A DNA stretch of 31,742 nt. Source: Candidatus Hermodarchaeum yapensis (GTDB taxonomy: Archaea; Asgardarchaeota; Hermodarchaeia; Hermodarchaeales; Hermodarchaeaceae). Location: assembly GCA_016840405.1 (NCBI GenBank), contig JAEOSK010000027.1:1-31742 (forward strand), read 5' to 3'. Made by a program: the position numbers and the translations under genes. This document shows positions 12,886 through 15,884 of this stretch, in pieces (positions within the stretch are counted from its first letter, which is position 1; every line of letters begins with the position of its first letter). The notes beneath the pieces are model-generated. The model was not told the DNA's origin. It was given only the letters and a program-made list of their open reading frames with translations, and searched no databases.

Positions 12886-14132
12886 GGTGACAAATAAGTC
12901 AAAATAGGAGTAAACTGAATCTGATTCATCGAGGGTATAGGTACGAATTAAAACCAAATAATTGTCAGCGAACAATGTTGGCTAAACATGCGGGATGTGC
13001 ACGATTCGCCTATAACTGGGGATTGGAACAGCAGATTAAACGGTTGCAATCACAAAAGAGGAAAAAACAATTCACAAATGCAATTGAACAACATCGCGAA
13101 TTAGTGCGCCTGAAAAAACTGAATTTCCTTGATGTATGAAGTGTCCAAATGCGCGCCCCAGGAGGCGCTCCGCGATCTCGATAGAGCGTTTACAAACTTT
13201 TGGCGAAGAAGAAAAAAGAATCAAGTTGGTTTCCCTAAATTTAAGAAGAAAGGACGTAACGACAGCTTTCGATTATATGGGAGTATACGAGTTTTTGAAA
13301 AGGCGGTTCAGCTTCCACGTTTAGGTCGAATACGTGTGAAAGAAAAACCACAAATAAAGGGGCAGATACTCTCAGCCACAGTTTCACGAAGAGCTGATAG
13401 GTGGTTTGTCAGTTTTTGTACTGAAGAAGAGAAAATTACCTCATCACTTGCTGATGGTCCTAGGATTGGTGTAGATTTGGGTATCACGTCTTTAGCTACT
13501 CTGTCTGACGCAACTGTATTTGACAAACCTCGAGCATTAACAAAGAGGTTACGAAAACTCAAGCGCCTATCCCGGCAGTTATCATGTGAAGAAAAGGGTT
13601 CGAATAATCGTCGAAAAGCAATCCTCAGGTTAGCAAGGCTACATTGGCGCATCAGCAATATCCGATTAGATGTCATTCATAAGGTAACTAGCTATTTGGC
13701 TAAGAATCACAGCCAAATCATTATTGAAGACCTTTGTATTAGGGTCATAATGAAAAATAAACTAATCAGTCGTGCCATCGCAGATGTGGAATTATCTGAG
13801 CTTTGTCGGCAACTCGTATACAAAACAAAGTGGTACGGATTAAAATTAATTATTGCTCATCGATTTTTTCCATCATCTAAACGATGTTCACAATGTGGGA
13901 AAATTAAAGAAAGACTATCTTTGTCTGAGCGAATATTCATTTGCGAGTCATGTGGATTGCAGTTAAATCGAGACCTTAATGCTGCTAGAAATTTGGTCAC
14001 CGCCAGTTGGACGGAGACAGAAAACGCCTGCTATGAGGCGGGAGGTTACAGCTCTTCGGGGCAGTGTTCGTCGATGAAACAGGAACTGAACTTCAGCCAA
14101 ACATAAAGCGTTGAGTAAGTTTCAGGCAACGG
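12886..14132 (+). mobile_element. Non-autonomous IS607-like (IS200/IS605 superfamily) element carrying only tnpB
   Basis: TnpB motifs of the IS607-associated type; right end reads GAGTAAGTTT...AACGG; candidate left GG at 12886-12887 followed by short A-rich repeats; no tnpA. Left boundary is tentative. Confidence 0.65.
12915..14106 (+). pseudogene. tnpB: TnpB RNA-guided endonuclease, frameshifted near 13110-13132
   Basis: N-terminal frame 12915-13139 (HRGYRYELKP, HAGCARFAYNWGL, NAIEQHRELVRLKK) continues in another frame from 13132 (MYEVSKCAPQEALRDL, GVDLGI, IIIEDL, SSKRCSQCG, CESCG, RDLNAARN). Confidence 0.88.
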
Positions 14133-14152
14133 GAAAGCTTTTTGTGGGATGA
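13995..14152 (+). ncRNA. Putative TnpB omega/reRNA scaffold plus flanking guide
   Basis: Inferred from its position overlapping the tnpB 3' end and the element right end; 5' boundary approximate. Confidence 0.45.
14133..14146 (+). promoter_or_regulatory. Candidate BRE/TATA of the tRNA-His gene
   Basis: GAAAG followed by CTTTTTGT, about 45 nt upstream of the mature tRNA start. Confidence 0.4.
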
Positions 14153-14186
14153 TGTAGTTCAACCATTCTTTGTGCTGGGACACTGT

Positions 14187-14343
14187 GCCGGGATAATACT
14201 AGTTGGATAATCAACTGCATCCCGAAGGTGTAAACTGGTAATTGCCCAGGCGCAATGGTAGCATTGAAGCCTGTGGAGTCCCATTTAATGTAATGGGATA
14301 CAGAAAGCTTTAGGCCGGGGTTCGAATCCCTGTCCCGGCACCA
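14187..14343 (+). tRNA. tRNA-His(GUG) with three introns (14195-14226, 14234-14255, 14277-14305) and encoded CCA
   Basis: Exons 14187-14194, 14227-14233, 14256-14276 and 14306-14343 join to a 74-nt cloverleaf: GCCGGGA TG GTGT AATGGTA GCAT T GAAGC CTGTGGA GCTTT AGGC CGGGG TTCGAAT CCCTG TCCCGGC A CCA. Each junction lies in a BHB or relaxed BHB motif; a T5 tract follows. Confidence 0.9.
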
Positions 14344-14390
14344 TTTTTCACTATAAACGTGGATAATGAGAATTAGACAAACGAAGCGAG

Positions 14391-15884
14391 TTGACAGCTT
14401 TGAAGCGCGGAAAAGAATTAGCGGTTGGTGGATTTCGAGATTTCTATCCAGAATTATACCAAAAAATCGACCGCATATTACGAGCCTTTCGAGAAATTCC
14501 TCAACTGTTTGGTTACATTGAGTACGAATGTCCAACCGTTGAGCCTTTACAATTGTTTCAGCTGAAATCAGGAACAGAATTAGTTGAAGAGACCTTCAAA
14601 GTAACGGACCGGAAAAATCGACAATTAGTCCTGCGACCCGAAACAACGCCTTCGCTTGCACGAATGCTCGCAGCACAACAACAATACTACCCACGTCCCA
14701 TCCGCTGGTATTCAGTTTCACGCGTATTTCGTGACGAAACCCAACAGCGAGGACGCGTTAAGGAATTCTGGCAACTCAATGTCGATTTACTTGGCACTGA
14801 AGACATAGGAGCAGATGCTGAAATCATCAACGTATTAGCCGCAATTATCCAAAGCCTCGGTTTTACTGCCGAAGATTTCGTAATCCGTATCAATGACCGC
14901 CGCTTAATCCAAAGCTATATCGAATCACTGGGCCTGATTAATTATCTTGAAATAATACGTATATTGGATCGTCGCGACAAATTCTTACAAGAAGCCATCA
15001 TCAGTCAACTCACAGAAGAGGGAACACCCGCAAAGAAAGCTGAGGAAATCGCACTCACTCTACGTCATTTCTTTGTAGGAAACCAACAAGAGCGACCAAA
15101 ACTGCCCCGTTCTAAACAGATCGATGAGATCATAGAGAATCTTCCCCAAATTCAACAAAATGCAATTATCGATGCTCTTGAAAACAGTGGGATCCCAAGA
15201 GAGGTTGCAGTTCAACTTACTGATTTTTCCTCGATAAAAGGCTCTCCAGCAGAGTTTCTAAAATTAATCGAGCAAGTTGAATTAACCAATGAAACCAGAC
15301 AGGCCCTTGAACCCCTACGACAGTTAGCAACACAACTCGACGATTTGGGAATAATTGCTTGCTGTGAATATGACGCTAGTATCGCACGAGGATTGGATTA
15401 CTATACAGGCGTTGTCTTTGAAGCATGGGACCGAGGAAAAGGATTACCACGCGCAATTGCGGGTGGTGGTCGCTATGATGACCTTGTGGGAATTCTTGAA
15501 GGCCAACCATTACCCGGCACCGGATTTGGATTTGGCGAAACCGTAATTCTTGAAATTGCAGAAGAGAAGGGACTCCTCCCACCACCTAAACCAGGTGCCG
15601 ATCTCTACATCGCACCTGTTTCAAAGAAACAATTAGGCGATTGCCGCCAGATTGCCACACAACTTCGTACAGCGGGGATTCGCACTCTTTTCAATGGTTT
15701 CACTTGGTCTCTCAAAAAATACCTTGACGATGCAAGTAAGCGACAAATTCCTTATGTAGCCATTGTAGGACCCCGAGAGCTCGCAAAGGATGCAGTTAAC
15801 CTTCGTAACATGAAAACTGGAAAAGAAAAAGAAGTGAAAATTGCTAGATTAGCAGACACTATCCGAACCGCTCTAAACCAGTAA
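14391..15884 (+). CDS. hisS: Histidine--tRNA ligase
   Basis: GFRDFYP, LRPETT, motif 2 FRDETQQRGRVKEFWQ, ARGLDYYTG, AGGGRYD, GTGFGFG and a C-terminal anticodon-binding domain. Confidence 0.96.
   Translation: MTALKRGKELAVGGFRDFYPELYQKIDRILRAFREIPQLFGYIEYECPTVEPLQLFQLKSGTELVEETFKVTDRKNRQLVLRPETTPSLARMLAAQQQYYPRPIRWYSVSRVFRDETQQRGRVKEFWQLNVDLLGTEDIGADAEIINVLAAIIQSLGFTAEDFVIRINDRRLIQSYIESLGLINYLEIIRILDRRDKFLQEAIISQLTEEGTPAKKAEEIALTLRHFFVGNQQERPKLPRSKQIDEIIENLPQIQQNAIIDALENSGIPREVAVQLTDFSSIKGSPAEFLKLIEQVELTNETRQALEPLRQLATQLDDLGIIACCEYDASIARGLDYYTGVVFEAWDRGKGLPRAIAGGGRYDDLVGILEGQPLPGTGFGFGETVILEIAEEKGLLPPPKPGADLYIAPVSKKQLGDCRQIATQLRTAGIRTLFNGFTWSLKKYLDDASKRQIPYVAIVGPRELAKDAVNLRNMKTGKEKEVKIARLADTIRTALNQ

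Follow-up and report, generated by a model that had tools for sequence, protein, structure and literature searches.

A tRNA-His(GUG) gene with three predicted BHB introns, one at position 8/9, upstream of hisS in a Hermodarchaeota genome

The window, meaning the whole stretch of 31,742 nucleotides that was analysed, is contig C10 of a 2.7 Mb assembly in 77 contigs that is 86% complete and has a G+C content of 44%. Four short exons of a tRNA-His gene, separated by three introns, lie on its forward strand just upstream of a gene for histidyl-tRNA synthetase. The features of the locus are as follows.

14134 to 14144, plus strand: promoter-like A/T box AAAGCTTTTTG, the presumed BRE/TATA of the tRNA gene, going by its sequence
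14172 to 14182, plus strand: leader copy of the acceptor 5′ strand, GTGCTGGGACA, with a pseudo-acceptor GCTGGGA at 14174–14180
14187 to 14194, plus strand: exon 1, tRNA positions 1–8, GCCGGGAT, invariant in 16 orthologues
14195 to 14226, plus strand: intron 1, 32 nt, at position 8/9, a BHB with the central helix C3–G6/CCCG
14227 to 14233, plus strand: exon 2, the 7-nt micro-exon GGTGTAA, positions 9–15, invariant in 16 orthologues
14234 to 14255, plus strand: intron 2, 22 nt, at position 15/16, with a relaxed HBh′ motif
14256 to 14276, plus strand: exon 3, positions 16–37, with the anticodon GTG at 14273–14275
14277 to 14305, plus strand: intron 3, 29 nt, at the canonical position 37/38, with a strict hBHBh′ motif
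14306 to 14343, plus strand: exon 4, positions 38–76, comprising the 3′ strand of the anticodon stem, the variable loop, the T arm, and the 3′ strand of the acceptor
14344 to 14348, plus strand: T run TTTTT, by its composition a likely transcription stop
14391 to 15884, plus strand: hisS, histidyl-tRNA synthetase, 497 aa, with the Pfam domains tRNA-synt_His and HGTP_anticodon

The exons measure 8, 7, 21, and 38 nt and the introns 32, 22, and 29 nt, with introns making up 83 of the 157 nt of the gene. Exon 1 pairs with 14333–14339 in the cloverleaf, and exon 4 ends with A73 and an encoded CCA (14341–14343). The T run that follows has an identity of 0.97 within the genus. On the other side of the gene, a TnpB/OrfB_IS605-type ORF of 325 aa (13129–14106) ends 28 nt before the promoter-like box. 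Homology to relatives begins only at ~14132, just 5′ of this box, and the TnpB element therefore seems to have been inserted at the edge of the tRNA promoter.

Joining the four exons yields a product of 74 nt, including the CCA, which ARAGORN calls as tRNA-His(gtg). The spliced product forms a class I cloverleaf with a 7-bp acceptor stem, a 4-bp D stem, and anticodon and T stems of 5 bp each, the anticodon GUG being held in a 7-nt loop on its 5-bp stem. Removal of intron 2 gives the D loop AATGGTA, which is contiguous in intron-less tRNA-His genes. The RNA junctions predicted for the joined product would read GCCGGGAU^GGUGUAA, GUAA^UGGUAG, and CUGUGG^AGCUUU (^ marks a joint here and a cut below).

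The cloverleaf dictates where the junctions fall, and at these junctions the introns were tested for the BHB register, in which the cuts fall two bases beyond the 3′ end of either strand of a 4-bp helix. All three introns of the window are in exact register. Intron 1 has the central helix CGGG/CCCG and the bulges AT^A and AA^G, flanked by an outer helix of 5 bp and an inner helix of 2 bp that is followed by a 6-bp hairpin. Intron 2 has the central helix GTGT/GCGC, the bulges AA^A and AA^T, and a 4-bp inner helix (CTGG/CCAG); its outer helix is absent, which makes the motif a relaxed HBh′. In intron 3 the central helix is CTGT/ACAG and the bulges are GG^A and AA^A, with flanking helices of 7 bp (outer) and 8 bp (inner). 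The register is kept in 13 of 13, 16 of 16, and 13 of 13 orthologues for introns 1, 2, and 3, with at most one mismatch, in three cases.

Two of these motifs draw on bases that have other uses. The central helix of intron 1 is built from acceptor-stem bases and competes with the acceptor stem. Bases G10–A14 form the outer helix of intron 1, and G10–T13 of the same stretch form the central helix of intron 2, so that the motifs of introns 1 and 2 are mutually exclusive in time. Minimum-energy (MFE) folds give the BHB of intron 3 only, with neither that of intron 1 nor that of intron 2, and in them exon 1 is paired with the 3′ portion of intron 2; these folds were not counted against the BHBs of introns 1 and 2.

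Two standard tools do not find the gene. ARAGORN reported no tRNA genes in the window, and Rfam at gathering thresholds gave no match there. With relaxed thresholds the Rfam tRNA model produced one match (14244–14340; 20.1 bits versus a cut-off of 29), which aligns the exon 4 part of the locus and mistakes part of intron 2 for an acceptor strand, the same one that the MFE folds pair with exon 1. This is an essential gene on which ARAGORN and the Rfam covariance model both fail, and without this locus the genome would appear to have no histidine tRNA. A scan of the whole genome for a His anticodon arm followed by a T arm had its only true match at the window locus; His-like anticodon arms on contigs C45 and C57 were chance matches in non-tRNA sequence. 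No second tRNA-His was found in the assembly (86% complete).

When introns were allowed, ARAGORN called a "tRNA-His(gtg)" on contig C20, which was rejected for two anticodon-stem mismatches and a body of 97 nt. With a D-loop insert and a 37/38 insert removed, the same call becomes a clean tRNA-Phe(GAA) and hence is not a tRNA-His. This tRNA-Phe(GAA) gene (C20:93–233, minus strand) adjoins tRNA-Val(GAC); its D-loop insert is ~35 nt long, and its 37/38 insert, of 29 nt, appears by eye to lie outside the canonical BHB register. Across the whole genome the Rfam tRNA model gave 23 matches above the cut-off and ~17 sub-threshold matches, and the sub-threshold matches that were inspected are multi-intron tRNAs for Val, Pro, Lys, Leu, Met, and Trp. 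The curated threshold thus leaves ~40% of the tRNA set undetected.

Comparison with relatives used 16 distinct orthologous loci, of which 12 belong to the genus of this genome and four to a sister genus. The tRNA-His gene lies directly upstream of hisS in all 16, with a gap of 47 nt in the window. The closest relatives of hisS among named genomes are from MAGs labelled Hermodarchaeota or Promethearchaeota, and a HisRS tree left the sister genus without resolution. Exons have pairwise identities of 0.99–1.0 within the genus, compared with 0.52 for the intron 1 hairpin and 0.67 for intron 3. When the precursor structure was imposed on the 16 orthologues, 93.2% of cells were paired, versus 38%–45% when the partners were slid by 1–3 columns, and none of 500 shuffles of the 16-sequence alignment matched the observed pairing or covariation. 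Compensatory changes occur in seven of the eight pairs of the intron 1 hairpin, and also in the intron 3 hairpin and the T stem.

Introns 1 and 3 are each missing from some members of the sister genus. Intron 1 is absent from G015, G016, and G018, in which the junction reads GCCGGGAT^GGTGTAA, and intron 3 is absent from G016, G017, and G018, in which it reads CCTGTGG^AGCTTT; G015 has a different intron at 37/38. With presence and absence falling at the exact predicted bases, introns 1 and 3 are, at the level of the gene, represented by natural spliced alleles. Their gain or loss among close relatives with single-base precision provides a clean natural experiment.

Intron 2 is kept in all 16 orthologues, with variation confined to its loop apart from a change of GCGC to GCAC that leaves the pairing intact. 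Intron-less forms at its site are known only outside the family, and these read GGTGTAATGGTA contiguously. An intron-less tRNA-His from another Asgard family has the D arm GGTGTAATGGTAACAT, the same as in the spliced product. The fully spliced sequence had no matches in an exact scan of metagenome contigs, and a scan for the exon 2–3 junction returned only intron-less genes of an unrelated organism, which are comparators for the gene and say nothing about its RNA. These are two contigs of an AT-rich archaeon whose tRNA-His has positions 8–44 identical to the spliced core and is contiguous across all three predicted junctions. The two loci (L112:2350–2690, minus strand, and L113:2080–2420) lie directly upstream of a hisS-like ORF, and this tRNA-His has an encoded G at −1 together with A73.

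The genome encodes two EndA paralogues, of 186 aa (alpha, contig C14) and 198 aa (beta, contig C36). The alpha subunit aligns end to end with EndA alpha of Aeropyrum pernix (3P1Z_B, E value 2e-46), and its best solved relatives are the A. pernix structures 3P1Z_B and 3AJV_B. Its Tyr-His-Lys triad is kept, there is no alignment gap through the loop, and a KPK motif aligns with K44-P45-R46 of the crenarchaea-specific loop. Experiments have shown that this loop enables cleavage of introns in the D loop and of relaxed introns (PMC3241643). In the 198-aa paralogue the catalytic His is missing. By these alignments a crenarchaeal-type (alpha-beta)2 EndA with a broad-specificity loop is encoded, whose activity and heterotetrameric assembly are predicted. 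RtcB is also encoded. Its matches fall on two contigs, at C74:10768–11895 (profile positions 1–365) and C61:3858–4367 (profile positions 263–426), and could reflect either two separate genes or one gene that is split or is broken by the assembly.

RNA-library data for 14100–14420 consist of one contig from each of four runs, 190–233 nt long and 90%–95% identical to the window, which come from relatives. All show the locus unspliced and contain no exon joints; such libraries may contain DNA, and a 74-nt tRNA would not assemble in them. One of the contigs begins at 14168, ~25 nt 3′ of the promoter-like box, which is at most a weak hint of transcription of the precursor.

Two alternatives to a gene from which all three introns are spliced were weighed. 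The first is partial splicing, in which intron 2 is never excised and the mature tRNA has a larger D loop. Every orthologue of the family contains intron 2, its motif is relaxed and lacks the outer helix, and a 2026 preprint on Asgard tRNAs gives D-arm inserts as matching the canonical BHB in only ~1/3 of cases (10.64898/2026.10.13.758758). However, the 4-bp central helix and both 3-nt bulges stay in register in 16 species, the sole change in the helix (GCGC to GCAC) remains paired, and the BHB accounts for all constrained bases of intron 2, with the loop alone varying. Excision moreover yields the D loop AATGGTA that intron-less tRNA-His genes carry contiguously, and the type of EndA encoded here is one that cuts relaxed motifs (PMC3241643). 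Retention of intron 2 is therefore very unlikely. That the locus is a decaying tRNA pseudogene with inserts that are junk never removed, as its invisibility to ARAGORN and Rfam and the solely unspliced RNA-library contigs could suggest, is scarcely credible, given exons that are invariant in 16 species of two genera beside freely diverging intron loops, a BHB register kept throughout the orthologues, conserved synteny with hisS, and no other tRNA-His found in the assembly.

We conclude with high confidence that the locus is a real, functional, and apparently the only tRNA-His(GUG) gene of this genome, and that its precursor would contain three introns removed by protein enzymes. The sequence-only reading had described a cryptic tRNA-His interrupted by BHB introns at positions 8/9, 15/16, and 37/38, and every coordinate and sequence that it gave for exons, introns, BHB helices, and bulges is correct. 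Its claim of the three introns is now borne out by exact intron-less alleles, invariant exons, and covarying hairpins, that of a regular 74-nt cloverleaf by the ARAGORN call on the product, and that of a relaxed intron 2 without an outer helix by the register test. It had also anticipated that standard annotation would miscall the gene, which holds for ARAGORN (no genes) and for Rfam (20.1 against 29 bits), and that a broad-specificity endonuclease would be needed, with which the putative (alpha-beta)2-type EndA of the genome agrees. The intact second tRNA-His that would have spoken against its reading did not appear in the assembly (86% complete), where this locus alone was found.

In the proposed pathway, transcription from a promoter near 14134–14144 would produce a precursor of ~180 nt with three introns. 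EndA would cut each intron two bases 3′ of each central-helix strand, RtcB would join the exons, and removal of the leader would leave a 74-nt tRNA with A73, an encoded CCA, and no encoded G-1. We infer that introns 1 and 2 would be spliced stepwise, because G10–T13 are used by both of their motifs. Stepwise cutting would also prevent both sides of the 7-nt exon 2 from being cut at once, which would release it.

The ends of the acceptor bear on the identity of the tRNA. A tRNA-His usually has an extra 5′ G-1, which is either encoded opposite C73 or added by Thg1. Here the gene has T at −1 (14186) and A73 (14340), so G-1 is not encoded, and the Thg1 Pfam family had no match in the genome (86% complete). 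The HisRS motif-2 loop of the adjacent hisS is FRDETQQRGRVKEF. Together, the lack of an encoded G-1, the lack of a Thg1 match, and this motif-2 loop suggest an unusual histidine identity rule, and G-1 may also be added post-transcriptionally. A tRNA-His without G-1, paired with a divergent HisRS, is known from one clade of Alphaproteobacteria. That case is similar in its A73, in having no encoded G-1 and no detected Thg1, and in its altered HisRS motif-2 loop; it differs in belonging to another domain of life.

A second unusual element lies in the leader. Thirteen nucleotides upstream of exon 1 is a near-repeat of the first acceptor strand (tgtGCTGGGAcac versus tgtGCCGGGATaa). This leader copy (14172–14182) is a near-tandem repeat of 14185–14195 and is complementary over 11 nt to 14331–14341, that is, to the 3′ acceptor strand and its flanks. 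Exactly that helix, between the copy and the 3′ acceptor strand, forms in the MFE fold of a precursor that includes the leader. The copy is present in 13 of 13 orthologues with intron 1 and absent from the three without it. Among the 13, 99% of its cells pair with the 3′ strand, and its substitutions (C to T, A to G) preserve this pairing. Within the genus its identity is 0.89, close to that of the BHB-forming intron bases (0.88), compared with 0.74 for the leader upstream.

The genome was scanned for similar arrangements at 38 tRNA 3′ ends for which an acceptor could be paired. A proximal upstream copy matching at 7/7 positions was found for two of them, tRNA-His and tRNA-Leu(TAA) on contig C36, and both of these tRNAs run into an intron after U8. 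A third gene, tRNA-Leu(CAA) on C77, fell outside the scan with its interrupted T loop; it has four inserts, including one at 8/9, and the same leader-copy arrangement. The copy accompanies all three 8/9-intron tRNAs found in the genome and no other tRNA. Since tRNA-Leu(TAA) and tRNA-Leu(CAA) are paralogues, the three cases are two independent lineages and not three. The arrangement of tRNA-Leu(TAA) is conserved across both genera, its fold pairs the copy with the 3′ strand, and in the Leu genes the copy lies 40–44 nt upstream versus 13 nt in tRNA-His.

The Leu loci are at C36:7259–7529 (L090) for tRNA-Leu(TAA) and C77:8740–9090 for tRNA-Leu(CAA). Their leader element, of ~40 nt, begins with a perfect GCGGGGG copy, resembles a degenerate tRNA 5′ half, and is conserved in both genera. 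At C36:2600–3150 (L091) the 3′ three-quarters of tRNA-Leu(TAA) occur a second time, identical from the D arm to the CCA. This second copy has no matching acceptor 5′ strand nearby, and could be a pseudogene or have its 5′ exon elsewhere.

One tentative interpretation is that introns at 8/9 need a helper, and that the leader copy is a cis-acting splicing chaperone inside the tRNA leader. In pre-tRNA-His the copy would pair with the 3′ acceptor strand over 11 bp. This pairing would free bases 3–6 of the true strand for the BHB central helix with the intron, and the copy would tether the 8-nt 5′ exon to the tRNA body until ligation. After ligation the true strand would displace the copy, and the leader would then be removed.

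Coming near to an even chance is the reading that the copy is a relic of the arrival of intron 1, without a present splicing role, and is conserved by promoter-proximal constraints; it could have arisen, for example, from an attachment-site fragment duplicated by a mobile element or from a small tandem duplication. Exon 1 holds the place of the copy relative to the promoter in orthologues that lack intron 1, and the leader of tRNA-Leu(TAA) looks like a degenerate duplicate of the entire 5′ half. In Caldiarchaeum, integration of a mobile element left an upstream 5′ tRNA fragment and a new intron (PMC3293823). The 3′ partner strand is invariant, so that no covariation is visible with which pairing of the copy could be followed. 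On the other hand, the copy matches the BHB-forming bases in identity (0.89 against 0.88) and exceeds the adjacent leader (0.74), its substitutions (C to T, A to G) still pair with the 3′ strand, and it occurs with all three 8/9 introns of the genome and with no other tRNA. A relic origin and a present use as a helper are compatible, and both readings can hold.

An improbable alternative is that the copy serves as an alternative 5′ exon, its GGG pairing with the CCCG of the intron and EndA cutting after it. With the upstream copy both the central helix and the 3′ site would indeed be unchanged, the copy in G008 (GCCGGGATA) equals exon 1 plus the first intron base, and one deletion, at the RNA or DNA level, would explain the joint loss of intron 1 and the copy in three species. 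Yet position 8 of the copy is mostly C or A rather than the near-universal U8, position 7 is G, C, or T in most species, and one species has a deletion in the copy. The copy is also less conserved than the invariant exon 1, and the inner helix would not form.

Multi-intron tRNAs of Asgard archaea are already published (2024, 2026), including a three-intron tRNA-His; the comparison that follows draws on excerpts of these accounts and of those on Thermoproteales. In three complete Asgard genomes, 92%–95% of tRNA genes have introns, and the listing for Atabeyarchaeia-1 includes a tRNA-His(GTG) with three introns (PMC11291895, 2024). A 2026 preprint by Goswami et al. on 90 Asgard genomes describes genes with as many as five inserts, as well as D-arm inserts that tRNAscan-SE misses, and files a few acceptor-stem or junction inserts under "other" (10.64898/2026.10.13.758758). 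The present gene resembles these tRNAs in phylum, in its several BHB introns at non-canonical sites, and in a D-arm intron that evades annotators. It differs in lineage, the name Hermodarchaeota being absent from the preprint. In the Atabeyarchaeia-1 table, no intron called by tRNAscan-SE starts after base 8 (PMC11291895), and the excerpts of both accounts contain no description of a leader copy of the acceptor strand (PMC11291895; 10.64898/2026.10.13.758758).

Thermoproteales also have multi-intron tRNAs (Sugahara 2007, 2008; Fujishima 2010; as cited in PMC4090602 and PMC4033280). As summarized there, these have up to three BHB or relaxed HBh′ introns at non-canonical sites, including the acceptor stem (at 3/4 in their case), and likewise require an (alpha-beta)2 EndA that carries the crenarchaeal loop. 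The sites named in the review text are 3/4, 20/21, 22/23, 25/26, 29/30, 30/31, 45/46, 53/54, 56/57, and 59/60 "etc."; 8/9 and 15/16 are absent from this list, and the phylum is a different one. The statement that 8/9 was not previously listed refers to this review text and one supplementary table. The sequence-only reading had named Thermoproteales as the context, and the multi-intron type does occur there, but the organism here is an Asgard archaeon (Hermodarchaeota), and the type was already published for Asgard. It had likewise regarded 8/9 as an uncommon site; this agrees with the excerpted review list, although the site is not unique to tRNA-His, being used also in tRNA-Leu(TAA) and tRNA-Leu(CAA) of the same genome.

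The nearest parallel to the leader copy is tRNA-Thr of Caldiarchaeum subterraneum, in which a gene that has acquired an intron is preceded by a partial copy of the 5′ part of the tRNA (Sugahara et al. 2012, PMC3293823). There, 1.8 kb and an element encoding a recombinase separate the fragment from the gene (PMC3293823), whereas the copy described here is 13 nt upstream (40–44 nt in the Leu genes), inside the leader, and conserved family-wide.

The locus extends the heavily interrupted tRNA trait of Asgard archaea to Hermodarchaeota, and its unusual features are the 8/9 intron and the conserved spare copy of the first strand just upstream. The part worth following is the link of 8/9 introns with leader copies of the acceptor strand. 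If the helper interpretation is true, the copy would explain how an intron persists at a site in competition with the acceptor stem, and a functional leader copy would mean that an intron site that is otherwise forbidden can become usable through its RNA context.
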